A stretch of 63,896 nt of DNA, filler included, from Phoronis australis (GCA_002633005.1; 6 parts of 6 records of this genome joined end to end with filler, not necessarily neighbours in it); one strand, 5' to 3'. Shown: positions 4,281 through 57,315, numbered from the whole stretch's first letter. Made by a program: numbers and translations. The notes: a model not told the origin generated them from the letters alone.

Positions 4281-7185
4281 AATGTGCCCCTACTAGTACA
4301 ATATACAAGTAGAGTGTGTATATAGAGTCTCTGGTGATAGACGATGGTTTTCTTATGGCAATGAAAAACCACGAATAGTTTTGCAATTCAAGTCCAAAGT
4401 CTGAAAACTGCCAGTAGGTAGAAATTCAACTCACGACCATCGAGTGACAAACAGGGTCTATCCAACCACAATGACATTACACTCCATTGATAGGGCTAGG
4501 GCTATCCTTGGTACAAATCTGTATACTAAATATACTACTCTGGCTGTGTGAATTTCGGGCTCTATTGAAGAAAAACACACTGGTATCTAGCTGATACCGC
4601 TAGCTGGCTGGGTACCACTGCAGACTCCCTCGACTCGATCACAACGATTACTATCAAATTGAGTACGTAATTTTCCCACATGTAATGGTTTCATCTAATT
4701 CTAAGAGTAATAGTTAGACTGTTCAGCTCATACAGGGAGCAATATCGTCATCAAAATGTTCAAGAAACGAATAAATTACCTGGTTAAGGCGAACTTCTCT
4801 TCTTCGGAGCAGTACCGGAAACAGCTGATTAGTTGCCGAAAGGTCAAACCGCACAGCATTATGGGCAACATTCGTTTGTTTTGATCACGCAGATTTTAAG
4901 AAAATAAAAAATAAAAGAAAAATATGTACAGGCAGCAGATCGACCCCATACTTACGAAAAGTTCTAATTAAGTGTCAGAGAGTATGTTTCAATGGTTTTT
5001 ATGCAGATTCACGATGTTTTTAAAACGTCTACAAATGGAGCATATGACTTTAACCTAAAGACCGCGTGTGCGTGAGCTTGGAATTAAATACACATTAAAG
5101 AAATCAGGTGATTTTTTGTTCAATTTTTGTAATTATTGGTCCCAGGATCACCCACTTTACCCTTTAACGATTTACAGTAACGTCAACGTGATGAGTTGAG
5201 TGAAGACGCCACGTTTTCTCGGGTATTTAAAGTACGCTCATGTTCGATCTTGAGAGTAAGTGAAATTCCAAGCTACGCAAGACACTCGAACTTCTATTGA
5301 CTCTTCGCCGGGCATCCATCTTTTCTTGGTGTCCCACACCAAAAATATAATTTAAGCTAAACAACATGTATTAAATTCAGTTTGTTTTCAAAAAATTCGA
5401 TGTCAGGATGAAAGAGTATAACTTGGGCTTAGGCTTAGAATATATATGCTTAACGATCCGTTTCATGAAGTGTTTAACAAAAGTGAAACGGAAATAGTAT
5501 CATTAAGGACGAGGATGTGGTACTTGTGTCGTGGTTTTCGTGTCTTCCAGTCTCGCTGCGGCTAGGGGCTTAGATCTCGGCTCTGTGAAAGTTAAAAGCG
5601 CAGCCATGGAATTGTTTCCACCTCCTGATTGCCACTGAGCGGTTGCAAGCTGAGCTTACTTCAACAGCTCGTGTTCTTAGCGAAGGATCACTGGCTGTCA
5701 AAGCTCGCCAAAGGAGTTATTCAGTTTTTGATAGCGACGGTCTGAAATATGTTTTTGCAAACCATTCAGGGCCACTTTACACCCAGTTCTTCACCAAAAC
5801 TTTACATTTGAATGAGATGTGCTACTCAAAAAATATTGTTTGAGAACTAAAGGCATCTAAATAACCACCACATTTAGAATGAGAGCAAGTCAGTATGGAT
5901 CATCCATGGTGGGGCTGGGTGTACACCGGAGTGCCGCTGAAATGGGGTGATTTTAGCCGATATTCGTATCAACTTGTAGGGTAAGGTTTTCGAAATCGCA
6001 AGGCATGTTTTTTCCGAATTTAGTATCTATAAAGGTCTTTTGTTTAACTTTTCATTTGTTTTTACAGTTTTGTAAGAGGACGCTGACGGATAGTGATCTG
6101 CTTTGATTTGTGTGCGGATATTCTTGGTTATTTATTCTATTTTTTATTTTAATCGGGCGAACATTTCAAAAACTTTCATATTAAATAATATGGACGTCAT
6201 TGTCACGTGGTCTCCTGGCGTCAAATTTTCTCCCGGCATGAAATTTTCTCGTGGAAGTTAATTTTCTGTCCTGTCGTGGTGTTGAAATTTGGTCGTTAGG
6301 TTCTGGAGTGATAAATTTTGGTTTTGAGTATATTTTTGGTCCTTCAGACAATTTTTTAATAGAAAGTTTGTGTCCTAGATTCTTTTTCGCTTTAGCTTTC
6401 CAAAGTCCTAGGCACATAAAAGTCTTGATGGCGTCGTCAGGGCTTGAAGTGAGCTAGTTGGTATTCGTGGGCTTGGCTGAACATTCTGGATGAGATAATT
6501 GTGGTCGTAAACCAACTCCTGTTTAGCGTACGGTTTTCAAAGTCAAAAAACGAACAACAAGTAAGGCAAACGACCGACATATATGTTTTTGAAATTCAAA
6601 AGTAAATAGTAGACGTCTTTGAATTTTTAAGATCAATGCAACATAAGAGAAATAGGCGAATTAGTTTTCTTCAGAATTGCGACTAAGCCACGAGCATTAA
6701 TTTGTAAAACGATTAGGACGGGTTAGACTCTTTCTGACTTTTTGCGGTAGCAAAATTCTATATGTTAGCGTAAGATTTGTCTCATTAATAACAAAATTCG
6801 GAAAGACCAATGAAACGTCTCGACCGAACAATCACAACGACGAAAATGATTTGAAAATGGCCGCCAAACGTAGAGTCAAAGAAACCGAAGCGCTCAAAGT
6901 ATATCAATGAACAAACCTTAAAGGCGAAGGCAACCTTTTTCCATGTCATTTTGAGCAAAAATAAGGTTGATTGGTTATCCTAGACATATTTTCCACTTAA
7001 TTACAGCTTTTCGGAATTTTATTATTACTCGTCCGCTACTCCGGAAGTGACGTTTTAGGAGGCAAACATTTCGCGCCAATTTCTTTTTATATAGTCTGAC
7101 TGTGAGAGCTGCCTAGTCAGTCATTGTTCTATCTCGTTTGTGTTGAGTTCCGTCGTCGTTTGCTTTCATTTACTAGTCAGTCAAC

Positions 7186-7992
7186 ATGCCACACTGTTGC
7201 TACGTACCAGGATGTACTAATTATCGGCTCACGCGCGCTTTGGGAGTACCTTTGCATCGCTTTCCGATGGATGACACACTTCGCCGTACTTGGCTCGTTC
7301 GTGTGAAGAACGCAGCGTTACCCGTCCACGCAACGTACAAAGCAGTGGAGAATTACCGTGTGTGTGGCAAGCACTTTCTGCCGTCCGATTACGAAAGGGA
7401 TTTGTACGCTGAACTGATGAAGGTCCCTGCGAAACAACGTCTGAAGAAGGATGCCATTCCGTCTGTGTTGATTCCCGGCAGTGCCCCGTCGCCACCCCCG
7501 AGAAGTGCGTTTTTGAAGCGAGAAGCCTCGCGAGCTGTGGCCAGTACAGTGACTGGAGCCAGCGGAGGCACTTCATCTACTGTCACCCGTGCCTCCGAAC
7601 GTACCCCAGAGCGTGCAATTCCTGGAACCAGTAGTGATTCGCCCTGTGCTGTTTTCTCCAGCCCAGAGCCTCTAAGCAGCCCTGCAGCGATATTGAGTAG
7701 TGGGAGTGATTACAGGCTCAGTTCGACACCCAGTGAAGAGGACAGTTCGTCGTCCAGTGAACAGATCGGTGAGCCAAACTTTGATAAGTTTATGGTGGAC
7801 TTGTCTAAAGTGTTGGAGCTATTTAGAAGGTGCCAGGTGTGAAGCGAGGGAGTCACACGACACGGTGTAAGCAGTTTGGGTGTTCAGGTCACCATCCAGT
7901 GGGAGTGTGTCGCGGGACACTCTGGCAAGTGGGACAGTTGTTCCTCTGTCCGTGGTATGCCGGAGGTCCACTTAACCATATCCAGTAGTGTC
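7186..7992 (+). pseudogene. THAP-domain Kolobok transposase, N-terminal part (premature stop, DDE domain deleted)
   Basis: THAP signature MPHCCYVPGC...LHRFP...W...RVCGKHF...LKKDAIPSV. In-frame TGA at 7840-7842 (likely ex-Cys of CQVC), then continues in frame with WECVAGHSGKWDS until the deletion junction ~7990. Confidence 0.85.
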
Positions 7993-8279
7993 TTGGCCTC
8001 GTCGAACTCTGAACAGCACAAGCATTCCATTGAGGTAGGCATAACAACGCACACAGTGCATTTGCACCAAGATGTGTCACCACGTCTGTCCTCAGTAGTG
8101 GCCTCGTTTCTCTCAACAGCTGCCTGTGCCTGTGCGTACCCTGATTCGTTATACTCGGGCTCAAACATGTACCCACTCACTGAATGTCCGTGAAAAAAAT
8201 CCTCGTCACCACTGTTGTGAACAAGGTCTCCTTCACTCACACTACTGTCACTGTGATACGGGTCACCGACTCCAGCCAT
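7990..8279 (-). pseudogene. KolX accessory protein N-terminus (P2X7 cytoplasmic-tail-like Zn cluster), truncated
   Basis: Acidic N-terminus, GYMFEPE, then RRGDTSWCKCTVCVVMPTSMECLCCSE matching the WCxCxxC..M....ECxCC.E motif of P2X7 C-terminal/KolX proteins. Confidence 0.8.
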
Positions 8280-9428
8280 TTTCAGCTTACAACAGAATAA
8301 ACAATCCCTAAATCCAACGTAGTTGAGTTCTCTACTAACCTATCTTGCCGCAGAATACTCGTCGATGGAAAGTGGTGGCAACAATTGTTGAAAAACAGCA
8401 CAAAACAAAAGTAGAATAGAACAGATTCGCACGGTAAAGTCAACGCAAAACCAAGTGGCGGGAAACGCTTGCCTCCTAAAACGTCACTTCCGGAGTAGCG
8501 GACGAGTAATTTATAAAATAACGAAAAGCTGCAATTAAGTGGAAAATATGGAGGATAACCAACCAACCCACCTTATTTTAGGTCAAAATGACATGGAAAA
8601 AGGTTTCCTTCACCTTTAAGAGTCGGAGCGCTCTAATTAACTACATGAACGCACACTTTTAATAAAACAACTGGTCAGCCATGCGTCTGCAGTAACAACG
8701 ACATTTCACCATTTTAAAAGCAATTAAACTAAAATGACCTTGGCTGAACCCGATAAACAACCTCAAATTGAGCCAAAAATAAAAACTTTCGTAGAAAATG
8801 ATAATGCAGTGGCGTTTTATGAATGCTTTGATGTTTATGTTCATTTATCCTATTTTTAATATTTACATGTATCTAGTGTTTATAAAGTTGTTAACTATTT
8901 TCATTCCAGAAACTAAGACACGACTATAGACCACGAAAACTAAGAAATTCATCGAAGTAAAAATGGCACCATGTTGCACAACTGTTCAGTTAACGTTTCA
9001 ATTATTATAAACCCAGATGGATTGTGTCTAAGTTTCCGACAAACTTTTAATATTACTGGATGGTTAGATGTTTGAGCTTGTATATTTATTATGGAAAAAT
9101 ATTTTACAAGTTCTTCAACACTTACACAGAAAATCTTGTCGGATACCAAGCTTGTCATATATATGACGTCATGTAACACCAAGCTAAAGCGCATGACAAC
9201 AAGCTGTCGCCGCCATGGAAATAAGTTCATCTATATGGGATAAATAAGATATCCTGAAATTTCCTATCTCGAATTGATTTAATCTGAAAATTTCCCAACG
9301 AGATCTTTGACTCTCGATCAGATATGTCCTGTGTATGTGAGATAACCTACATGTACGTAATCAGTAGACATGGTGTACCTAATTATCGGACGGACTCTAC
9401 ATATAGGACATTACATAAAATCTTACTT

Positions 9429-9689: not shown

Positions 9690-11139
9690 GACTTGACGCA
9701 TAATCTGAAATAAACTGACTGCATTTTTTGTTCCGCTGTAATGCATCAAAGTCCGGCACAGTCTCGATTTAAGTAGCGTTGCCTCGTTTTGATTTCACCG
9801 AGAGAGGGTGCAATTTAGACCCCATGTCGGCCTAACATGGACGATCGCATAAATCAGTTATGTAAGTTGAAAACAAAATCTTTTTCCACAGTGAAATCAT
9901 GTCAATGAACTAACAATACGTCACTGTTTCATTTTTATTTGTTTTTTTAAACTTAAGTCGAACCTTTGCCGCACACGTGTCTGCGACATTTCAAGAGGGC
10001 AAAGAGATACTAAAAACTGCAGTGAGGTTTCACGTGCTTTAGTCGTGTGCACGGATTCGTCTACACAACTTGGTGCTGTCAAAAGATTACATTTAATGGA
10101 TAATTTTGTTGCGAACGGAGCTGTATCTTTGGCTGTGTTCTAGCAGCAGTTATATCAAATTTGGCAAAACGGTGCCTGAGGCCTTTACTTGGTTAGTCAG
10201 TGACCTTTACTAGATTGTCGGGCTCAAGCGCATTGCTAAGCGTGTCACTGATGTTCCCAACACAAATTTCATCCCGTCTCGCCGACAGCATATACATGTA
10301 CAGTACAGCCACTGAATTTTTAGTTTTCGTCCGGGCTACCTCACGCCTGGCCAGACCGGAGCGCAACCGGAACGCAGGCCTGACAGAAATTAGTCACGGT
10401 CGCCTAACGCCTACTCTCCGGGTAGTCCTCATGCTTACCTCGGGTTTAGTTAACGCGTTCCTCACGCCTCGTTAACGCTTACCTCACGCTTTCTTCACGC
10501 CTTTGATAGCCGTTGTAACCATGGTCGGGCACCGGGCTAACCAGTAAAAATACATGTAACGTCTTGATTGTCCGTCTTTTCGGTCAAGTTGCAAATACAT
10601 TATAGTATATTATAGAGTATCTTTGCAAGCAGTCATCTATCACACTTGGGTTCCGAATAACCCTGTAATTCCACGTGTTGTTCATACAAACGTCTTCCTT
10701 CAGCTCGTCTTGTGTTACACTTACATGTACATGTTCAATTTACGACTTAAGAGCCAGTCCCATCAACGACATACATGTACATGTACATGTACAGTAACCA
10801 CTGATGTGATTAATACCCCAGTGTTAGTTCCGGTTAATTTGAAAGGTGAGTCTGAGTTGAGTGGTATCTAGTTCCCAGGTTGTTGCTAATTCTGAGTCAT
10901 TAGATTTTGTGCACACCCTGGTTCCGGATCCCATTTCAGGGGGGTCAAAGGTGCCCCACAACCCTGTCGTTTTGCAGGATCCACCTCCTGAGTTTGTAGA
11001 TGCCCCTATGGATACTATTAATATTCAGGAGGCGTCTTCTGGTAACACCCTACACCAACTGGCTGGCCGTCTGCTTCACTGGAGGCAGAAGGTCACTCTT
11101 CCACAAAGGGTGAGGGATACTGGTTCGCCGTAACCTAGG

Positions 11140-12204
11140 ATGTCGTGTGTGGCAAAAGCCCGCCAGCCACCTGGCATGCCCCTAAAAGGTCGACGTTCAT
11201 CTGGGGCTTCGCTGTCCCCGTCCAAAGCTAAATCAGGATCAACTCCTGATTTGGCTATAGATGCCCACTTCCATCTGGATCGCTTGTCGGCATCCTGGGC
11301 TCAGCGTCATATCACTGAGACTAGGATGCTGGCGATCGACCAGATGCTCAGCACCCAGCTGCCACGGGTCTCTCAAAAACCTGTACGGTTGGTTGGTGGG
11401 ATTGCAGTTTTCTGCGATGTGGAAAACTGGAAGTACGTTGAGGCTTCCCGTTTCCCACATGGCTGGAAGGCTGTGGTGGGCATCCATCCCAAACGGGTTG
11501 GAACAACGAATCCTGGTGTTCTGGAGCGTCTACCCCAGCTACTAAAGGCGCCCTTTGTAGCTGGCCTAGGCGAGGTCGGTCTGGAGGCCCGGGAGGACTT
11601 GGCCATCCAAAAAGAAGCTTTGGAGGAGATGGTGCAGATCTTTGCGGAGGTTCGGGCCAGCTCCCCTAGCTTCAAAAACAAAGTCGTGGTGATCCACCTT
11701 CGTGGTTCCCCCGACAATCCACGCTTCTTGGAGGGACAAGACTTTGTCTTTGATCTCCTGAAGCGCCACTGTGATGCAGACTTGGGTTTGCATCTCCGTT
11801 GTTTTGGAGGTGCGCCAGAGGATGTACTCCGGTGGACGGGGTTCTTTAGGAACTGCAACTTCGGCTTCGCCGGTCATGTGCGGCAGTTTCTGAAGTTCCA
11901 AAATAAGGGGTTACAAGAGGTTCCGATGAATCGACTCCTCCTGGAGTCCGATTCACCCCACCTCGCCATTGGGCAAGCCCCAATGGCGCCCCAATACCTG
12001 GGGGAGGTAGCTATGGAGGTGGCGCATCGTTCTCGTCGTACGCTGCGTGACATCCTGGCTGTTTCCACCTGGAATGCCAGGCGGCTTAACCATCTCTTAC
12101 AAATTGTTAGAGGTGGTTCAGCATCCTGGTGTGCCTGGGTCATAACCTATGCCCCAGGTTTTCTCCTAGTCCCTTGGATAATTGCCCGTTATTATGAACT
12201 CTGA
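11140..12204 (+). CDS. tatD: TatD-family (amidohydrolase TIM-barrel) nuclease, intronless, possibly decaying
   Basis: Motifs in correct order: IDAHFHLD, VGIHP, GLGEVGLE, VVIHLR, HLRCFGG (canonical HCF His appears as Arg, CGT), LLLESDSPHL, STWNARRL. ORF 10861-11133 is in the same frame, separated by one TAA. Confidence 0.88.
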   Translation: MSCVAKARQPPGMPLKGRRSSGASLSPSKAKSGSTPDLAIDAHFHLDRLSASWAQRHITETRMLAIDQMLSTQLPRVSQKPVRLVGGIAVFCDVENWKYVEASRFPHGWKAVVGIHPKRVGTTNPGVLERLPQLLKAPFVAGLGEVGLEAREDLAIQKEALEEMVQIFAEVRASSPSFKNKVVVIHLRGSPDNPRFLEGQDFVFDLLKRHCDADLGLHLRCFGGAPEDVLRWTGFFRNCNFGFAGHVRQFLKFQNKGLQEVPMNRLLLESDSPHLAIGQAPMAPQYLGEVAMEVAHRSRRTLRDILAVSTWNARRLNHLLQIVRGGSASWCAWVITYAPGFLLVPWIIARYYEL

Positions 12205-12336
12205 GGCTGACTACGGTCTCTGGGTTTGTGCCTTACTCTTTGTCCTAGGAGAATTGGGATGCCCGTATTAAGCAGTATAAGTAGTTAAGTAGCGTACTGG
12301 TCCATTATTTTTATATAGTAGTGTTTATTCGTTAAA

Positions 12337-12449
12337 GAGGAGGCAGTGTTGCCTGGTTGATAAGTGCCCGCTTTCTTAACTCGAGGTTGTGGGGTTCAAG
12401 TCCCACCAGGTCACACTGCTAAACCCTTGAGCCAGGTTTCTAGCTCCTC
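12337..12449 (+). ncRNA. tRNA-derived/SINE-like structured element with Pol III B box
   Basis: B box GGTTCAAGTCC (~12393-12403) and a degenerate A-box-like TTGCCTGGTTGATAAG. Closing stem GCAGTGTTGCCTGGT/ACCAGGTCACACTGC; outer GAGGAG/CTCCTC. Confidence 0.5.
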
Positions 12450-13220
12450 AGCTCGGTTTTAACCATAAATAACTAAAGCATAATAATATTTCCAGGTGAT
12501 CAGTGCAATGGGCTCACATGCGAGGCCTGCGCACGTCTGGTACAACGTGTATCAGACCGCCTGCAATTATTTTTATTTATTTTTGTTATAAGTTTTCATA
12601 CTATATATATATATAATCTATTTATGTATTCAATACTATACTTTCTATAGTATAATGTATTAGTTGTTACTATATAGTTTATTTTTGTATATTAAGTTAA
12701 GTTTTCTATATAGTCTATGTATGTTATGAAAGACTATATCATTTTATATCTCAGTGCATCTCTACTAAAGTATAATGAATACTCAATTTATGGCCAGTAT
12801 GCTTTTGTTGTTCAGTTTTTTAGTTTTTAAAAAAAAATGTGTATATTCTCTCGCCAGGTCATCACCAACAATCAGAGTGTTGTCATAGCATAGTCCAGGA
12901 ATTCTATGCTCCCTGGTACTGGTATTAGTGGAGCATATTTTCTTTTTTTTTTCTTTTTTAGTCATGTTCGACTACTATAGTGGATATATGCTATGACCGC
13001 GTGTCTAATTAGTAGTTGTTTTTTTGGTAGGGGGGAGAATAGTTAGATTAAATTTTAACCAGTAATTCTTACTTTACAAGGTCACCCCTCATCATGTTAG
13101 TTATAGGGTTTAAGGTCTTGTCACTGTTGTCTTAGGTCAAGGGTTTATGTTTAGATGTTGGGAATGACGTTCGCCATTTGCTATAAGGGCTACACTCCTT
13201 TTCTTTAGGGAAGGGAGGAA

Positions 13221-13513
13221 TGTAGTAAATGTCGACGTCAGTCTCGGCTGTGGCGTCTCTATGTTGTGATGTCCTTTTGTTAACATTGTTGCGCCTGGTG
13301 CGACATCTGACGCCAGAAGAGCCCAGCCGAGGTCACCCTGCTATCATGTGACCGTCACCCTTCAAGACCACGTGACAAGATCGTCTGGGGCTTCTGGAGT
13401 TCGCTGCCGTCCTGTGCGGACGTGAGTATACTCCGGACTTTTTCTCTTGCACCGCGTTAATAGGCCCGAACTTGTGTGTCTGCTTTAGGCAACATACCCT
13501 TTTAAATACAACA
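13221..13513 (+). repeat. Putative 3' LTR (293 bp)
   Basis: Starts TGTAGTA immediately after the PPT and ends TACAACA. No second copy in the window. Confidence 0.65.
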
Positions 13514-16500
13514 GGATTAACAGCTAGGATAGGCTACCAGTAAGGCGCCAGACACAGAACGAATGAGTTTCTACCGAACTAGTACCTACCTACGGTATCG
13601 GGAGGGGTTTGAATTGAACAGTGCGTCATGTCCCGTGGTTCCTGCTCCCTCAACCCCCACAGCTCAGAACTTCTTCGAAATTGGTAGCAGTGCTTTTACA
13701 GTATGTCTCAACTTATGAAATCGCCAATGGCTTTCTCAAGGCTTACTCGGACATGCTTGATTTCATTTTTAAGATTTGATATCGTCCTCAACTACGTTGT
13801 TATAAATTCTTACTCTAGTAGGCTACATAGGATAGCTCTATCAACTTTAGGCTTGCATAGCCCCACGGGATCTGTAATCGTTTCTAATCTAATTAAAGAA
13901 CAGGTTAAGGTACAACACTTGTTGAGTCAATGTTTTATTTTTGGCAAACAAAGAGGAAATATTAATTTCATTTTTAAATATGTAATTTAATGAGTATTAG
14001 GTTTTTATTGTGGGATGTCAGCAGGTCTAAATATTGGTGACACTAGATATGGAGCACATCACTCCAGGGTTCTGTTGACAGCCTTTGAATTGTCTCATAG
14101 GGATGATTAGACTTTGTCTACCACCTATTTTACGTGCCCAAACTAAGTGATTGGTAAGTCTAGGACAAAGTGAAACAAAACTACTCTTTAAATTTTAGGC
14201 AGTGAATAAAAGTTACGTTACAGCCACTGAATTATTAGAGTTCGTCAGGGTTGCCTCACGGCTGGCCAGTCAAGAGCGTAACCGGAACGCAGGCATGAGA
14301 GAAATCAGTCACCGGTCTTCTCCCGCCTGCTCTCCGCGTAGCACTCACGCTTACCTCCGGTTTGGTTAACGCCTTCCTCACGCTTCTTTCGCGCGTACCT
14401 CACGTTTCCCTCACGCCTTCAGTAGCTGTTGTAACATACCGTGATGGTGCGCCGGGTTAACGAAAATATCATCTAGATCTGTGTGTGCAGTCATCCGTTG
14501 TTTTGCCATCTCATACCACTGGTTCCCACATACTCCGCTATTTCTCGTATTTGTCACTCAAACTAAGTCCTTTAACTCGTCTGGTGTTACATTTATGCTG
14601 TATGATTTTTTACTCTAAATCACGTCCCATCAAAAACATTCGTGGTGAGTAAAGACTTAAACCATTTGGTGGTCTGAGGTTAAGACGAACAAACGCGACC
14701 CTCTACACGCGACAGTCATGTTTACATGGCTGCAGGCTCCACAAAACTCATCACATCTGGACATACTTTTAAAATTCGCCCAATAAAATTGTTGTGATGT
14801 TATAGTTTTCTATGACGTCATGTTTTAGTGACGTCATTCTTAATTCCTGTAAATATATTTTACATTTCTTTTATACGTTTCTGCTTCTTTCTATTACAAA
14901 AACATAACAAAAATAGCCCACGCATCTTCACTTACTCTGTGGATTCTTAGACCGCACTCTTGGAACAGAAAATTTCAATCAACTCGCTTCTGCGGGTGAC
15001 GGCATGTACATGTAACATCTCCATCCCCTATTGCGAGCGCATGCTAAGTCCCTAACCCCTAGTACGGGTTTATTTCAACCCCATTCCCTTAGTGTTTCGG
15101 GCTTACGTAGTCCCGCGGAAATTCTTTACTCAAACAGTAATAGCAATCGCCTCTCTGATTCGTCAAATGGTCGTGATCACATTCTCCGCACGATGCTGAA
15201 ATTTGGCCGGATGAATGTGCGCAGAATTCACGCCCTATGCTCTGGCTTATAGTGAAGCCAATTAATTATTCCGTCATGCAAACGTGTGTCAACATTGTTG
15301 ACATGCTTATTTAAAAAACAAATGTATACGAGTGAGAAGTTAAGTCCTGAGGTCTGTTTCATGGAGTAACTTAAAAGATTTGAGAAAGGACTTTGGCCTT
15401 TTGTTCCACGTAAGGATTTCCGAATAATAGTTGAAACTCAGATAAGCAAAAATTTTTGGGAAAATACACATCACTGTTAGTTACATAGACAAATTTTATA
15501 ATTTAGTTCACAAATGTGATGCGCTTATAATTACTTCACTAAATATTTATACAGCAATCGTGGTATGCGTCAGACTGAGTGTCTATCTTTCAGTCATTTT
15601 CATGAAACGGACCAAGAAACTGCATATATCAACAGAAAGAGTTTGTAGTAAAAGACTATGGTGGAATGCTACACAAATGTTTTTTCAACAATTAAACGAT
15701 CTACTAGTATGCACGTAAATGAGAAATTATACACACTTAATAATAAAAGAATAACTGTCAAATGATAAATCCACTAATGTACAATGTTTCATGCAATTTA
15801 TTATATACCTATAATACATTTCTGCTAACTGCGTTGAAATAATACACAGTTTGCAGTTGCTATCTAAGATAACAAGAATAAATGTCAAATAATAAATACA
15901 CTAATCTACAATGTTTTATGCATGCTTTTGGTTTGTATAATGAACTACATTGAGTATTGGTCGTATAGAATATTTGCCCTGAGATAGCTGACGTGTACTA
16001 TATAATTGTCAAAGTTCTTACAGTTGTTAATAATCTAGCACTGGGAAATGTTTCTTGAATTTCGACATAGTACTTCGTTTAAATCGCGCTAAACGAGATA
16101 CAATAGGAATTGTGATTGTCCCGACTGTAGAGAAGGTAGGGAAACTCAAGCATGGCTCACGCCTGGCTTACGCCAGCCTGACGCCTGGCTCATGGTAAGT
16201 TCCGGGCACAGTCACGCTTAGGCTCACGCCAGTTCTCACGGTCAATTCTCGCCTCGCTCTCCAGTCTGGCTCCGGTTACCGTCACGCCTAGCCAGACCGG
16301 AGCCAGCCCGGAAAAAGGCTAATAATTCGGTGGCTAAACTGTACCATAATAAAGGTCAAAAGTCTAGCTATATGATTTCATGCACAGAAATCCCAAGTCA
16401 ATATGTGGTTTTTGGTTGTCAAATGCCAAGTATTTGTTTTAAGTGCTCAGTAATATCAAAATACAAACAGTGACAGTACTCCCTCGACAACCTCCTGCAA

Positions 16501-21688: not shown

Positions 21689-22100
21689 CAGTTTATCGGT
21701 GTCGACCTGATCATATTTCCAGTTGGTTCGAGTGGTGTGTTGCTCTTTAACCGGTTTTTTAAGTGTTAGAGTGGTTTCGATAGTGTGGTGATCAGAATTG
21801 CCAACAGGAGGTAGTACAGAACATGAGTCAATGATACTCAAATTGTTTGTTATACACAGGTCAATACATGAATGAGAAACGTCGGTGATACGGGTTGGCT
21901 CATTAATTAGTTGTATGCAGTCATTAGACAATAAAATATCAAACAATTGTAGTCCGGCCGTATTGTCATGATCATCATTGTACCATGTAGAGTTTCGGGC
22001 ATTGAAATCACCATTTATGATTATACTAACGCTATTGCGGTTAAGTTCCGCTAACTGATCCGCTAGGGCTTTGAAGTAGAGTTTTCTTTCAGAAGAGAAG
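21689..22100 (-). pseudogene. CR1/L2-clade LINE ORF2 APE endonuclease fragment
   Basis: IIINGDFNAR...QLINEPTR....SCIDLCITN...GNSDH motifs; runs into an N gap. Confidence 0.88.
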
Positions 22101-22867
22101 GGTTGAAGACCTTCGGACGGCTCCAACTACAGTGGCTGTGCCTATTGGCAGTTTTGTTTTTGCTTTCATGGCTGTTAGTATCTCCTAAACTCTTCACAGG
22201 GTTTTTGTTAAATTGAATCAAACATATTCATATGGTTATCAATCAACAAATTGTTGTTAAATGTCACTAAATCTAAATACAGGCAATTCTGAAAAAACAA
22301 CGACAAATCAATTCCATACCATTCTATAAGCAGCCAAAACCTAACATTTGTTAAAACATTTGACATTTGACCACGCTATATCCACACGAAATAAGTGTCC
22401 TCATAACCCCTCTTCCCCTCTCCCCGCTCCCTCTCTATAACATGACTTTCTCATCTCTCTTTAACATGACTTTGTCGACTCTCTCTAACATGACTTCGCA
22501 ATCAAACCCTGGAGACCTTTTCGGAAATTCCTGGCAATTTGATTTAAATAAATTTAGGCATTTTCATTACTATTTAATGTACTGTTTAGCTTCAAATTTC
22601 GGCACTTTTCAAAACAGAAAGCTTTGCAGTCGTCTACTTCCTCTGTTTCCTCAACTTGTTAGCAGCCTCATTCCACAAGCAGTGTTTTTCGCACGTGCAA
22701 TCGAGTAACAAAGAATTTCAACATTTTGTCATTTATAACAGCTACAGGAAAATTGCTCAAAACGAGAACAGTATGCATGCATGTAAACAAGGTGGAAAAT
22801 GACATAACAAAATTGCCAGGTCGAAACATTTAGAGGGCCCACTGACTATTGCATTGCACTTGCCGTT

Positions 22868-23623
22868 CGTGTTCTTCTTGATGACGTAAGTTTCATACCC
22901 AGTCGAGACATTATTCCGCGTATCGCCCGAGACCGAAGGTCAAGGTCGATACGAGAAATAATGTCCAGTGGGATATTACTTTATGTACGCCAATCGAGGA
23001 ACGTTTTGTATTTATCCCATACGCTTCGAATTCCTAAGTTTCTTTCAGTTTTTCCGTATTTTTTTTAATGCTTCACTCTGACTGTTCACGTGGCGGATCA
23101 TATCTTTTAAGTATGTACTTGCGCGTTAGGTTGCAAGTCTTCTCTAGTAAAAGAAACAGTTCTAAATATAATGATTTGTTATTTTAATAGAGATAACAAA
23201 GATGAAAACAACGGCATCTTTGCATTGAACTTGTAAAATCTCCTGAAAATAGTTAAATAACAACGTTTGATATTGCCAAGGAATCGGTGCCTGAGTTGCA
23301 GACGCTTTAATACCCTGTATATAGAAAATTGAAAACTGAGACAGAACTGTCATATAATTAATAGTCCTGTTCCAGATGTTACAATTTAAACATGGTTGCA
23401 TGTTGAGTGGTATTTACGCTACTACAATTGTATTGCTTTAAGCTATTTTCCGAAAGTTTGATGATCTACGTGTAACCGGCTAACGATGTCGAGTCGACAT
23501 TGACCTACCTTTTTAACGTTCAATGTCAGAGGTTACTGTTGAAGTAGTGCGGGAGATGGATACGGAATACATTATTGCATGGCCGTATTTCCCTCGACAG
23601 ATTCAACGCGTATGGGATAAATA
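22868..23623 (+). mobile_element. Non-autonomous element with terminal hairpin plus inverted repeats, copy 1
   Basis: Homologous over ~750 bp to 41773-42543. Hairpin centred on CGAGACCGAAGGTC; IRs TATTTATCCCATACGC / GCGTATGGGATAAATA. Confidence 0.75.
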
Positions 23624-23689
23624 TGCGGTGATAAATGCCTGCTTTACTCATTGGTAGATCACAGCATTAGTAGTGTCCGACCGATCATC

Positions 23690-23977
23690 ATGTTTGAACG
23701 CAACTTATTGTTTCTCTTTTTTCTACTAGTGTGTTTTCAATTTAATTCCATGGTGACTCTAGAGATGAGCAGCAGATTTCACACGGAAAAGACATCAGCA
23801 TCAACGTGCCCGGGCAGTGTAACCGTCACAGCATCTTCTCTGATCGAATGTTCTCATCTCTGTTCGGTGGATCGCACTTGTGTGGCCTTCCTGTATGTCG
23901 GTAGAAAGATTTGCTCAACTTGCAATATTGTGGAAAAGATAGTTCCAAAGAACGGCGAAAATATTTTCGGGTGGCGG
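23690..23977 (+). CDS. First coding exon of a secreted PAN/Apple-domain protein
   Basis: ATG plus hydrophobic signal (LLFLFFLLVCF), then SLIECSHLCSVDRTCVAFLY...C (PAN-type CxxxC...C..F.Y...C). Phase-0 donor CGG|gtgagt. Confidence 0.65.
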
Positions 23978-24632
23978 GTGAGTACGTCCAGAATCTGAGG
24001 TCATGACACAAGTACTGCCAATATTAAACTTTTACGAACACGCCACTTGCAAAATGGGTTTATCTAACGCGCATTCTGCTTTTCGTCATCCACTGGGTCT
24101 AATTTCCATAGAAATGAAAATTTCTTTGATGGTACTGAGTCTTACTTACATTTTGCAAAAAGTCACCTGCAACTATCTCAGTAAATATTGAAAGTAGTCT
24201 CAAGTGTGTCTTGTTTGTTTTTGATGAGCCTTCCAATGTAAATATATAAACATAATTAGCCACCCTGATAACACTGAGGCAGCCACATTAGTATGGCAGA
24301 TAAATGGCATAACACTCAAATTTTAAGCATTATAGTACGATCTTCATTGGCCTGTGTGTTGGCGATAAGGCTGAGTGAATTGTTGTCTTGGGAGTAATAA
24401 TGGTTTAATAAATGCCACGAGGATTAAAAACCGACCCAGCAATTTATAATTTTAACATGCAGTTAAGTCACAAAGAAATGCTTCCTGTACGTTCAGTCAA
24501 CCTACCGGAAACAAATATTCCAGAGGCAATAGTTTTCAACGGATTTTCTAGATGGTTTCCAATACGGCGTCGAAGAAGACTACGTGCAACATTCGTTAAG
24601 TACATGGCGTGAGGATTTAAACAATTTAAGCT

Positions 24633-45570: not shown

Positions 45571-46079
45571 TGTTGTAGATGTGCTTCCGGTGAATTATAT
45601 GAGCCTCTGTTAGCTACTCACTAATGGGCAATTGCCTATTAGCTGAATGGTTAGCACGCTTGCCGGTTTTATGGGGGTCGCTGGTTCGATTCCCGAGTCG
45701 GGTGATCTCGGCTATTACTACAAATGACGTAGTCGGCAAACGGATGATCTACTGATGAAGCACTGCCAACTAGGGATGACGCGTGTGGAAGGTTCCAGGA
45801 GTCAAGGACCTGTATGAGAGACTACCTTGTGCTCACCTGTGTTGTGGTGGTAAAGGTACCAAGGGACGTTGATGACCTGTATGCGAGACATCCTGGTGTT
45901 CACCTTCCTGGTCGCGTGCCCGTTCCGTAGGGGAAGGGGGGAATGTTGTAGATGTGCTTCTGGTGAGTTAGCTACTCGCTAACGGGCAATTGCCTATTAG
46001 CTGAATGGTTAGCACGCTTGCCGGTATTATGGGGTCGCTGGTTCGATTCCAGAGTCGGGTGATCTCGGCTATTACTACA
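45571..46079 (+). mobile_element. TRIM (509 bp) with tRNA-like Pol III unit in both LTRs
   Basis: LTRs 45571-45722 and 45944-46079 (TGTTGTA...TACTACA), TSD CTTC, PBS TGACGTAGTCGGCA (45725-45738, tRNA-Ser with one mismatch), PPT AGGGGAAGGGGGGAA. Confidence 0.92.
45633..45705 (+). promoter_or_regulatory. tRNA-like A-box/B-box internal Pol III promoter in LTR (second copy ~45991-46062)
   Basis: A box TAGCTGAATGG and B box GGTTCGATTCC at tRNA-like spacing; acceptor stem degenerate. Confidence 0.7.
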
Positions 46080-46402: not shown

Positions 46403-48029
46403 TGTTGTAATCGTCAACATTCGCCCTTTATCTTTCTGTGGTGTCTTGTGATTTGTCAGTTTTATGGTTCCCCGGATGCTTGTTTTATTTAAACTGCTGG
46501 CGGGAACCCTGCTGGCAGTCTTTCAACAAGCAATCAGGATGTCAGGGATGGGCACCTGGATTGGGTTTTACTGGAGCTTGAATAGCTGGGTTTTAACTGG
46601 TGAGTACTTCTGGAGGCCTAACTAGTGAACCTGCAGTAATACAACAATTGGCGTAGTCGGCACTGATTAGGTTTTTCTAGGAGTATTCAACCACTTTTCT
46701 TGAAAACCTTTGCCTGACCAGGGCATTTTCCGTAGGTCCGGGGGGGAAGGTTGGATAGGGGAGTGGTATCGTGCTAGCGGGTTGCTGGTACGGTGGCCAA
46801 GTGGCCTCTTGGGGTTGGTGGTTTAACTGGGTTTTTATCCTTTGGGTTTTGGGTATTTATTTATTTATTACGTCCGTATAGTTGGTGAGTTTAGGCTTAG
46901 ACATTGTTTTGGTTGTATCATTGAATTGAACACCATTCCACTGACCTAATACTTTCTCCTTACAACTAAGTCCCTTATTTATTATCATACCCCTGATATT
47001 TATTTATTTATTTATTTATTATGTCCGTGTAGTTGGGGAACTTAGGCTGAGGCAGTGTCTTGGTTATGTCATTGGACACCATTTCATTGACCTAATACTT
47101 TCTCCCTACAACTAATTCCCCTATTTATCATCGTATCCCTAGTGCGTGGTTAACCTGGGTGCGGTACTTTCATGTCCGTCCCAGTTGCCAGGAGGCCTAT
47201 GTTTAGTGGAGGGTCAGTCACATTTCTCTGTGAACCTATCCATTTTAGGTCTGTGTCCAAGGCGTTCCCTTCGGGTTGGAATTTGTCTGCCTGGCCACCA
47301 CCCGAAGCACGTCAAAATGTAATATTCTAGTAGCAATTAAGGGTGGCATGCGTGTATCATGGTAGTGCAGGGTTTATTTTGAGAACTCCACTAGAAATGC
47401 ACGTGTCCTATACCCTTTTGCAACTACAAGTCCGGGGAGTCTCCCTAGCGAGAACTTTTTCCGTTAGGTGACTGCTCTCCCGCCCTGGGGGGGTGGGTTG
47501 GGATCCTGCTAGGTTTTCTCTTTATGAGTTACTTCATGTGTTTGGGATGTGCTCGCATTCTGAACTCTTTTTATTATTGTTGGTACTTCTATATTTAACC
47601 TGTGTACGTTATTCTCTGCTTCTAGGGCAACTGTCCTTGTCATTCTAACACTCTAGGTCTATTTAGGAGTGGCTTTATTTTTGATAAGGGGGGATATGGT
47701 TAAATTTTTGGGAAGTTTTTTGTATCTGGCGAATGATGTTGATTCCCAGGTGGGTCCCACACTTTTTTAGGGAGGAGGGGAATGTTGTAAACGTCAACAT
47801 CATTCGTCCTTTATCTTTCTGTGGTGTCTTGTGATTTGTCAGTTTTATGGTTCCTCGGATGCTTGTTTTATTTAAACTGCTGGCGGGAACCCTGCTGGCA
47901 GTCTTTCAGCAAGCAATCAGGATGTCAAGGATGGGCACCTGGATTGGGTTTTACTGGAGCTTGAATAGCTGGGTTTTAACTGGTGAGTACTTCTAGAGGC
48001 CTAACTAGTGAACCTGCAGTAATACAACA
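46403..48029 (+). mobile_element. Non-coding LTR retroelement (1.6 kb, TRIM/LARD-like)
   Basis: Near-identical LTRs 46403-46646 and 47783-48029 (TGTTGTA...TACAACA), TSD CACA, PBS TGGCGTAGTCGGCA (46649-46662, tRNA-Ser), PPT AGGGAGGAGGGGAA. No ORF; internal ~160-bp tandem duplication ~46855-47140. Confidence 0.93.
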
Positions 48030-54065: not shown

Positions 54066-56377
54066 TAGAAAGTAGAAACAGATAGTTTGCGATGCACTGG
54101 TTGCATGTCAACACCCCAGTGTCGCTCTTGTTGAAAAAATGGTTGTAATGGGTGTTTGCCATTTGTTAAACCTAATGGATGAGGATGGTTAGTCATTGTC
54201 TTTTGATGGTTTTTGTAAATAAGTCAGCTCTAATAAGATCTGTTTTTGATTTTTTGTGGACTCCTAGAAGCTGTGTGTATCATAAAATGTAAAAACATAA
54301 ATAGAAACAACTTTTCACATTTTTTGTAAAAGTATTTCTTGTAGATAAAAATTGGACAAAGCATACATTAGTTTTGTGCTTCATTCATATTCTAGTTCCA
54401 GGTCTGAGATGAAATGGTAAACGGAACTTGCTATATACATGTCCTCTTCATAGGTGGAACAATGACTATTATTTGACCTTAATTACACTTGATATGGAGC
54501 TTAATTATTCTGTCAGGATTCAGATATGTTGTCGCATGGAATTATCAGTCTTATCTCATAGTTATTTATATTGAGGTTTAGTAATTAACTCCTCATTGTG
54601 TACAGTGCTTCTCTGCTTTTCCTTTAAAAAAAAAACGTGTTTTGCCCAATCGGCTTGCATAAAAGCAGTGCTGTCAATTGACCCAGTTTTGATCAATCCA
54701 GTGACAGTGTACTGTTTGTGTGCTGACCTACTTTTCTCATGGGAGTTCAAGGAGTGATCACCTGTGGAGGTAGGCTAGGGCTATCAACAGGTGTATACCT
54801 TAATTGTTGTTCTATCGAAACAGGAACGGCTGGTGTAAAACGGATATCCTAGAGTCAAAAACAGACTCACGCACCATCAAAACAGCTATAACCAGTTGGA
54901 AAAACACAAACCCTGACCTAGCTTTAAAACAGGAATCCCAGGGATCGGACAGGAAACTCACATAATTTTTTAATTTCTGAGACCGTTGTCAGTAGCCTCA
55001 AACTTTGAGTTAAAGCAACTTCGAGTGCTCTCCAGGTGTTAATTTCCTTCATTTGTTTGTTAAAAATTGTCAATAAGAAAACATAACTTATATTATCCTA
55101 TACGTTTGTTAGTCATGAAATACGGGTCGTGTTGTGAGGTTTGATATGGAAGAACTACTTTTCTGAACGTTTTCTGTATTCAACGCAACTTGAATATGGA
55201 TGCCTTCTTTCCCGCCAAAAAGCTGTGCACACAATTAATACACTACAATCAGTTGGAACTTGATTATAGCATCACTTTAATGAGTTCAGGTCTGTGCGCA
55301 AAAGTATTTGAAATCGGGCTTCACCCTCATTCAAATGATGCGCGGCTACAAATACATAGTCTACAAAAGAACTGTCATCTGAGCGATCAAAATCTCAAAT
55401 ATCACGGAAACAGTAAGTTGTCGGAAGAAACAGGTTTCATAATGCTGATAGCACTTGAAAAGATCTATCCACATTCCAAATTTCAGACAGATTCGTCACG
55501 GAAACCAAAGATAATGGCACAAAGCCAGTCTTCTGAAAATCTCATATAACATGAAAATGTAGAGAAAAACAATTGCAACACTTGTGATAGCCCTTAGAAT
55601 GATCTATTCACAGGAAAAAAATCCGAGAAATCCCACCGAAAACAGTGGAGCTATGGCTCCGCAAGCGAAAAAGGGAAAAATAACCCTATAGCGCCATCTC
55701 GTGTCCAATTTTGACCAAAGTATAGGCTTCGAGCCTTTCAGGAAACACGTTTTGTGTAAATTTCACGTTGATCTGATAAGAATTGCGATCTGTATCATAG
55801 TCAGTTGAGTCCAAGAAGATCAAGTCGAGAGATCAAGTGAGTTCAAGTAAGTTAATCAGGAGAACTACAATTGAGTTGCAGAATCAGCAGTTACAGCGAT
55901 AGTCAATAGAGAGCCAGCTATAGAGACAGCAGGTTATTGAATTGAGTGTAACAGTTGCTGGAAGTATCTCAAAAGTTCAATACAAGTCGAGGCTTCGCAG
56001 CACTGGCTGGAGCATAAACAGACATTACGTCAGACGTTTTGTTTGAGTAGGCTTGTGAACGTACGGTCCGGATTAATAAAGGATTAACTCGAACCAGTAT
56101 TCAGTCAATCTTCACACCGAAAGCTATTGGCACCTGTCTGTAACAACCTGCGCCCACCCACACACGGGGAAAAACGTGACAATCATGCTACCAAAAAATA
56201 AACAAAAAACTTCATGACAAAGCAGCATCTACTTAGAGAAATTTCATCTCACCTAGTATTAAATACATGCAATGTATAAATAATTTATTGTATTGTTATG
56301 TGTGCTATTACATGTGGAGACGACTGATGGTGATGGTCATCATATCACCCAATTTTAGTTGGGGATGTTTTTTTCAG

Positions 56378-56732
56378 ATTGTGATGTTCTTTGCCACCAT
56401 TGCTGCAACAAGCTCTGAGCAATGCACCGATCCTCGGTGTTCATGTCCACCAGGCGAATATGTGGTACAAAAGTGCAATGCCACCCACGAAAGGGTCTGT
56501 GAGTGTTGCCCATATGGGCAATACACAGACAAACAAAGCTGTATTCGCTATTGTATTCATTGTGATCGTTACTGCACTAAACCGTTTATGGAAGTAGTCT
56601 GGAACTGCACCAGAGAACACAACATTGTGTGTGAGTGTACTGATGGATATTGGGAAAGGGACCCTACTCACGACCCTGCTGGCTGCATACCTCACACCAC
56701 TTGTAAAGAAGGAGAAGGTGTGTTAAGACATG
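56378..56732 (+). CDS. TNF receptor superfamily member, exon with cysteine-rich domains
   Basis: ttttcag|...|gtgagt. Encodes end of a signal peptide then CPPGEYVVQKC...CECCPYGQYTD...CIHCDRYC...NCTREHNIVCECTDGYW...CIPHTTCKEGEGVLRHG. Confidence 0.9.
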
Positions 56733-57315
56733 GTGAGTATCCGTAATGTCATTAATGTAATTATCAAAGTAGTACCAGAATTGGTAATTTCAATTGAGGA
56801 CTTAGCATTTGTTTTTGTGCGTCCACATAATGCTTTATGTGCACATATGATGCACTTTTGCCTGTTGTGCGGGTATCCGGTCATTATCTCAAAAATCCGT
56901 TGTTGGATTTCGCCATATTGTGGCACAAGAGTGCACAGAGGACATCATTAGAACGGTTCATGCCACTTTTCAATCTTCCCCACCCCCTGAGGTCGGGTGT
57001 GACGTGGCTTTTTCAGTAATTTTGAGGGAAAGGGCATTTTCAGGCGATGTCTGAAAACTGAACTCAAAGGTATGTGATATCAATTCACTGCCACAGTTAA
57101 TTTTTGGGCGGATTTGACCACTGTAGCACTTCCTAGCGGCCATTTTGTTTTCGAGATGGGGCTTAATTCCCAAGTGTTTCTTGTGGGAAGAATGTTTCTG
57201 TATGATTATAATCTATGACAGCTAACCAACATAATTTTGACGAAATTTGGCACAGAGGTACATGATGTCTATATGTGTCGACACTGTTTCATTTTTGTGC
57301 TACCCCTGCGAAATG

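Follow-up and report, generated by a model that had tools for sequence, protein, structure and literature searches.

Why does an intronless gene for a TatD-family nuclease stand upstream of a polypurine tract and a long terminal repeat (LTR) in the genome of Phoronis australis? We address this question for a stretch of 63,896 nucleotides, filler included, joined from records of assembly GCA_002633005.1 and called the window below. An initial annotation had proposed an LTR retroelement at 10795..13513 which carries the TatD gene in the extra, envelope-like position. Our results indicate that this TatD is very likely the cargo of an LTR-element lineage. The fuller explanation that we favour, tentatively, is that the window holds a 5'-truncated, likely dead member of a multicopy LTR-element family. 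The relatives of this family are Ty3/Gypsy elements with TatD as third open reading frame (ORF3), and this ORF probably encodes an active TATDN2-like nuclease which would clear the RNA from RNA-DNA hybrids that the element forms. The copy in the window is composed of the following features:

10800-11133, plus strand: element remnant before TatD, probably the low-complexity linker of ORF3, with a deep-contig match and its frame closed by stops
about 11257-12087, plus strand: complete type II (HxH) TatD domain inside the 354-amino-acid (aa) ORF at 11140-12204, the 3' part of ORF3
12205-13206, plus strand: non-coding 3' region of the element, with high contig depth outside the insert
12337-12577, plus strand: very high-copy insertion, presumably a short interspersed element (SINE), missing from the deepest contig
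13207-13220, plus strand: polypurine tract (PPT) of 14 nt, directly before the LTR
13221-13513, plus strand: 3' LTR of 293 nt, TG..CA, with a donor-like site at about 13422; LTR edge and depth collapse

The TatD ORF runs from ATG to TGA without an intron and is GC-rich as described before (0.546 compared with 0.409 window-wide). It matches the Pfam family TatD_DNase (PF01026) with 84.8 bits (E 8e-24, cut-off 27), and since profile positions 1-251 of 253 are covered unbroken, the domain is complete. The N-terminal HxH motif (H43, H45) makes it a type II TatD, the type defined by this motif (PMC10085689). Five of the six metal ligands and the substrate histidine are kept. The fourth histidine position, residue 220, is an arginine, and an in-frame stop lies just before the ORF at 11131-11133, both as reported initially; additional stops are found farther upstream. 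At the position of a CDP motif that is common in the family, the window copy has FCD without the P. A change from histidine to alanine at the matching position of TATDN1 had a small effect (PMC10085689). Judged from the sequence, the residue 220 change is likely, though not certain, to have cost the window copy its enzyme activity.

For the copy number we compared the window with public sequencing runs of the same species (X1, X2 and X3, all from one study, with X1 and X2 from one sample). The main ORF contigs have a depth of 797, 224 and 67-84 in X1, X2 and X3, and difference-free flank pieces have 23-31, 3-7 and 2. The ORF contigs are thus about 25- to 75-fold deeper than the unique flanks, and the TatD is not single-copy; a single copy would have spoken against the initial annotation. 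Both ORF and LTR are multicopy in this species, with copies roughly in the tens. The high depth is continuous from about 10800 through the LTR and collapses after about 13490; the summed X1 contig depth is about 1350-1800 in the bins of 12205-13206 outside the insert and 90-112 in two bins past the LTR. Unrelated flanks adjoin the LTR exactly at its first base, 13221, in 11, 5 and 2 contigs and 17 reads (agreement 0.46-0.63), which is the pattern expected where many 5' or solo LTRs start.

The PPT and the LTR-like unit are present as annotated. Complementary letters are found at 6 of 8 end positions of the LTR, and a PPT abutting a TG..CA LTR is what Ty3/Gypsy LTR retrotransposons show. The pattern of at least 8 purines followed by TGT occurs 5 times on the plus strand of the window, and two of the four other matches (45929, 47769) are PPTs that belong to complete elements, each with two LTRs and a 4-nt target duplication.

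The annotated start of the element needs a correction. In X1, a 514-nt contig of depth 485 (record 1) aligns to 10800-11043 with 252 of its letters and diverges past 10800. As this contig continues unlike the window beyond there, the copy is cut off near 10800, and 10795 is a truncation point and no natural start. The insert at 12337-12577 had been overlooked. We take it to be SINE-like from tRNA-like A and B boxes seen by eye, and Rfam and ARAGORN scans of it gave no match. The joint 12336-12578, which skips these 241 nt, has a depth of 1118, 214 and 23 in X1, X2 and X3, and the bin depth over the insert exceeds 100,000 in X1. Because the window copy is 5'-truncated, carries this insert, has lost one metal ligand and has no gag or pol, it is probably a damaged, dead relic of the element, as had been suspected, and the truncation makes a working gene in it unlikely. 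The copy itself contributes little past one additional host.

Layout of the element and its ORF3 family

The organisation of the element can be read from relatives. Homologue searches gave 6 proteins, whose alignment led to 8 element-type loci among 80 metagenome loci. We took the other 72 to be bacterial TatD, a step based on the ORFs of 4 and on the tree for 24. One further element-type locus, L081, comes from 80 genome loci and is the only one examined there. An integrase with a C-terminal PHD finger stands directly before the TatD ORF in all five loci with enough upstream DNA (L003, L005, L007, L029, L081). L003 is a whole element, circularly collapsed. Its gag contains helix-hairpin-helix, PNMA and zinc knuckle domains and its pol contains protease, reverse transcriptase, RNase H, integrase and PHD finger. 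These are followed by a 907-aa ORF3, a purine tract and a 257-nt LTR, and a primer-site-like motif is also present. Gag and pol are both found in L003 and L005, pol in L007, and integrase alone in L029 and L081. The layout in the relatives is gag, pol (protease, reverse transcriptase, RNase H, integrase, PHD finger), ORF3, PPT and LTR, with the pol order of Ty3/Gypsy elements upstream of TatD. A Ty3_capsid match in L005 (E 2.5e-5) is below the cut-off.

A PPT followed by TG lies 331-767 nt past TatD in five of the nine loci (L001, L002, L003, L007, L081), and the contigs of the remaining four stop 27-584 nt after TatD. The TatD gene thus does occur with an LTR elsewhere, and the linked gag, reverse transcriptase and integrase that the initial annotation had asked for exist in the relatives, although none is found in the window. 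Its central proposal, a retroelement lineage with TatD in the extra-ORF slot, is supported by the gag-pol-TatD-PPT-LTR order in the relatives and by the high copy number of ORF and LTR here. We consider it likely that the family in this species also has gag-pol.

Several searches concern the separateness of ORF3. No reverse transcriptase or integrase domain was found in any of 47 long relatives scanned, which sets ORF3 apart from pol. Fused forms of 1599-4565 aa were absent among 7967 candidates, which is weak evidence. In Pfam, ORF3 matches TatD and no envelope family. Viral contigs gave 72 pattern matches, none of them related.

Two further observations were made on these loci. In L003 (235-1776) and L005 (98-547), gag opens with a helix-hairpin-helix motif, and a PHD finger closes pol in 5/5 loci. 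In contig L081:1-11388 of a Sedimenticola metagenome-assembled genome (MAG), a repeated unit of 7761 nt comprises integrase-PHD, TatD and PPT/LTR, and an NXPE4_C-like ORF precedes the integrase; the contig is probably host DNA in the Sedimenticola bin.

A profile search for ORF3 returned 846 clusters at E <1e-30, and the family features given here are drawn from the best 150. These include 146 new proteins. The full ORF3 has about 660-910 aa and consists of an orphan C2H2/helical N-terminal domain (N-domain) and a type II TatD domain, so that the initial annotation had captured the TatD part and overlooked the rest, with its zinc finger. The N-domain is found in 102 of the new proteins, including 63 of the 65 with at least 600 aa, and its two cysteines and two histidines are invariant in 68/68 rows. 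The two-metal site is conserved in the family, with all six metal ligands kept in 123 of 139 rows, a count that excludes 20 partial proteins and the frameshifted L004 and L007. The N-domain has no Pfam match. Its structure model has a predicted local distance difference test score (pLDDT) of 90, and searches with the model found no matching fold (Foldseek best E 2.4 against the PDB and 0.8 against viral structures, VIA-align best Z 3.6), which does not make the predicted fold new. In the window, the N-domain profile gave a 13-residue match to the remnant at 10800-11133 (E 0.085 in a 1-kb search) and nothing more. An LLHWR stretch at about 11071 resembles an N-domain motif of the family, but was rejected on this E-value and because it is absent from the window-wide search. 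By its sequence, the window copy is missing the zinc-finger N-domain.

Named family members come from Mactra, Mya and Lingula, that is from bivalves and a brachiopod. Near-identical copies are found on many chromosomes, with 13 in Mya arenaria and 4 in one Mactra cluster. Two members (P0038, P0041) are filed under Sedimenticola MAGs and are probably host DNA. A quick tree of 99 element and bacterial rows, using every second family protein and every third bacterial row, places the window protein with 74 family rows and apart from 24 bacterial rows, with a Shimodaira-Hasegawa-like approximate likelihood ratio test (SH-aLRT) support of 100. The three gag-pol-linked loci are scattered across the family in this tree. 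A comparison of the window ORF with the deep contigs lists 17 differences, of which 12 are at the third position of a codon (p 0.002). This excess suggests purifying selection on the ORF during subfamily divergence.

Expression, origin and role of the TatD cargo

The envelope protein (env) of Ty3/Gypsy elements is made from a spliced message, raising the question whether ORF3 is expressed in the same way. A donor-like site is found in 4/5 LTRs (background 0.07-0.17 per 300 nt), and an acceptor-like site lies 23-58 nt past the pol stop in 4/5 loci. With these positions, ORF3 is likely to be read from an env-style spliced message, whose donor would lie in the LTR and whose acceptor would closely follow the pol stop. 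Coverage of ORF and LTR by the X6 and X7 reads is low and comes from both strands. These reads show no start or end at the ORF and no splice joint, and point neither for nor against expression.

For the origin of the cargo, the family profile scores 128.9 bits with YcfH, 60.8 with TATDN3 and 57.5 with TATDN1, in a list without a TATDN2 entry. The CDP motif occurs in 112/139 family rows and in 0/72 bacterial rows. In the supplement of PMC10085689, the string FCDP occurs once, in the row of human TATDN2, the single human row compared. Because the motif is common to the family and human TATDN2, it seems fairly probable that the ORF3 TatD was captured from a host TATDN2-type gene.

What might such a nuclease do for the element? 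In R-loops, the RNA strand is a substrate that human TATDN2 degrades (PMC10711561) and that medaka Tatdn2 removes in germ cells (PMC12709183), which is why we favour an RNase that clears hybrids. The orphan zinc-finger domain would steer the nuclease to the element's own nucleic acid, and its substrate would be the RNA strand, either in hybrids or R-loops where the element is inserted or on intermediates of reverse transcription. This combination of targeting and substrate is a tentative proposal, and we rank it above counter-defence, with repair of DNA ends or AP (apurinic/apyrimidinic) sites last.

As counter-defence, the same cargo could degrade the RNAs with which the host silences the element, or the hybrids that these RNAs form with nascent transcripts, and so shield the element from small-RNA silencing. 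That ORF3 stands apart from pol, is probably spliced and brings its own zinc-finger domain would suit this role, a silencing role has been considered for the DEDDy ORF3s of rotifer elements (PMC5408684), TATDN2 cuts hairpin RNA (PMC10711561), and TatD has been co-opted in the conflict system of QatD (PMC13434339). Among the same loci, TatD domains are 32-37% and integrases 57-67% identical, so that TatD diverges much faster, as in an arms race. Fast divergence however fits relaxed constraint on an accessory gene equally well, and the third-position excess points to purifying selection; we regard counter-defence as rather unlikely. A still less likely role is on DNA, where a 3'-5' exonuclease and AP endonuclease could clean cDNA ends or damaged bases and aid the repair of integration gaps. 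Host repair enzymes normally serve Gypsy elements here, and the absence of pol fusions in the 47 long relatives gives no indication that the nuclease travels with the integrase. The activities measured for TATDN1, TATDN3, TatD and YcfH (PMC10085689), and the rank of YcfH as best solved match, are nevertheless of the kind that this role requires.

Other explanations concern the element rather than the enzyme. The family in this species could be non-autonomous, keeping ORF3 without gag-pol and being mobilised by related elements. The window indeed has no gag or pol, and two other LTR elements in it, complete but non-coding, have PPT/LTR ends like those of the TatD element, but the deep contig extends past the truncation point, so the family is longer than the window copy, and 5/5 relatives with upstream DNA have an integrase. 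This makes non-autonomy improbable. Least probable by far is that a host TATDN gene gave rise to a processed pseudogene which lies near a solo LTR by chance. It would account for the intronless ORF, the upstream stop, the substituted ligand and the TATDN2-type motif. It is contradicted by the high depth that runs unbroken from ORF to LTR, by the LTR edge with its unrelated flanks, and by the integrase-TatD and TatD-PPT-LTR order in the relatives. Moreover, the closest matches of the window protein are members of the element family, unlike what is seen for the TATDN2 domains of lancelet, sea urchin, octopus and crayfish, which are 42-50% identical to human (PMC12709183).

Several points weigh against our explanation of a truncated Ty3/Gypsy-type element with a hybrid-clearing, TATDN2-derived ORF3. 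No gag/pol remnant, second (5') LTR, primer site or target duplication is found for this copy in the window, nor were gag/pol, 5' LTR, primer site and target duplication seen for the family of this species; among the loose LTR ends listed there is no primer site. The nine loci stand for about four sources, as L001, L002, L004, L006 and L007 share one assembly and L003 shares one with L029, and the C-terminus of L081 matches L006. The window protein has a branch of 1.31, is at most 38% identical to others and has no strongly supported place within the element group. Contig depth does not equal copy number, the 17 differences come from a single comparison and are those with the best support among about 820, and the acceptor count comes without a background control. 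Regarding origin, the best solved relative of the family is bacterial YcfH, and TATDN2 capture rests on the motif, the tree being one of element and bacterial rows. Regarding function, elements L003, L005 and L007 retain RNase H, so that a second hybrid nuclease is not obviously needed, and the TatD enzymes assayed are mostly 3' exonucleases on single-stranded DNA and AP endonucleases (PMC10085689).

A bolder version of our explanation, which we think unlikely, would be that an old and widespread clade of invertebrate Gypsy elements captured a TATDN2-type gene only once, joined it to the zinc-finger domain of unmatched fold, expresses it by env-style splicing and uses it to destroy the RNA-DNA or small-RNA hybrids through which the host silences it. 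Many annotated 'TatD genes' of bivalves, brachiopods and symbiont MAGs would then be cargo.

Neighbouring features of the window

The two complete LTR elements mentioned above lie close together. The one at 46403-48029 is non-coding, with LTRs of about 245 nt that are 97% alike over 232 nt, a 4-nt target duplication, a primer-site-like motif and a purine tract; the PPT/LTR starts of this and the TatD element are 79% alike over 43 nt. The other, at 45571-46079, resembles a terminal-repeat retrotransposon in miniature (TRIM) of about 510 nt, with two short LTRs and a 4-nt target duplication; its primer-site-like motif resembles the one in its neighbour. A dispersed repeat (10299-10770, 14214-14640 and 16257-16344, 80-84% alike) is found on both sides of the TatD element, and its upstream copy ends beside the truncation point.

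Inverted repeats at 6917-6976 and 8561-8620 enclose a THAP ORF on the plus strand (7177-7842) and a P2RX7_C-like cysteine-rich ORF on the minus strand (7884-8339). From this arrangement, 6917-8620 appears to be a small DNA-transposon-like unit. At 14726-14926 there is a strand-biased RNA peak in X6, with a depth of 146 on one strand and many molecule ends at 14839 and 14859. The window also contains a tumour necrosis factor receptor (TNFR) cysteine-rich exon (56237-56746), a PAN-domain ORF (23621-23998) and a non-LTR endonuclease fragment (21700-22126).

Comparison with known systems

None of the literature matches listed describes TatD in a retroelement; the search did not extend to subscription journals, Repbase Reports and bioRxiv supplements, which may contain such a case. 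The available text of a short review names the chromodomain and a DnaQ-like exonuclease as accessory domains of LTR elements and has 0 mentions of TatD (PMC6338049). The active site of the TatD ORF3 is kept across a large family (846 clusters, of which the best 150 were viewed), which offers natural compact TATDN2-like enzymes for probing how retroelements process RNA-DNA hybrids or counter silencing. The family also calls for a correction of annotations. In Mya, Mactra and Lingula, multicopy genes labelled 'uncharacterized' or 'metal-dependent hydrolase' are probably element genes, and so are the TatD genes filed under Sedimenticola MAGs.

Of the cellular proteins, TATDN2 is like ORF3 in having a type II HxH TatD domain at the C-terminus of a long protein, a CDP motif after the first strand pair and both catalytic glutamate positions (PMC10711561, PMC10085689, PMC12709183). 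The ORF3 of the element differs in being intronless, multicopy and placed within LTR elements, in the roughly 30% identity among its members and in its own N-terminal domain. The bacterial YcfH and QatD share the HxH motif as well as the remaining ligands. The best match in the PDB is YcfH, and QatD is a case of co-option in conflict (PMC13434339). The element proteins form a branch separate from the bacterial rows, and most of them carry the CDP motif, which no bacterial row has.

The env-carrying Ty3/Gypsy elements known as errantiviruses also have a third ORF between pol and the 3' LTR, but the available text of PMC13524379 contains 'TatD' 0 times, and the ORF3 described here is a nuclease. 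The donor- and acceptor-like sites of our elements are positioned as for the spliced message of env-carrying elements. The closest parallel are the Juno and Vesta LTR retrotransposons of bdelloid rotifers, with an ORF3 for a DEDDy exonuclease or a GDSL esterase (Rodriguez, Kenefick, Arkhipova 2017, PMC5408684). They too are Ty3/Gypsy-like, their non-envelope ORF3 is enzymatic with its catalytic residues kept, and roles in 3' processing or silencing have been proposed. Their exonuclease has a DnaQ-like fold, whereas a TatD TIM barrel is combined here with the orphan C2H2/helical domain. The rotifer ORF3s are described as recent gains, whereas the TatD ORF3 is found in bivalves and a brachiopod and in hundreds of 50% clusters. 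Few ORF3s of LTR retrotransposons are known to encode something other than an envelope, and TatD adds a third type of enzyme to them.

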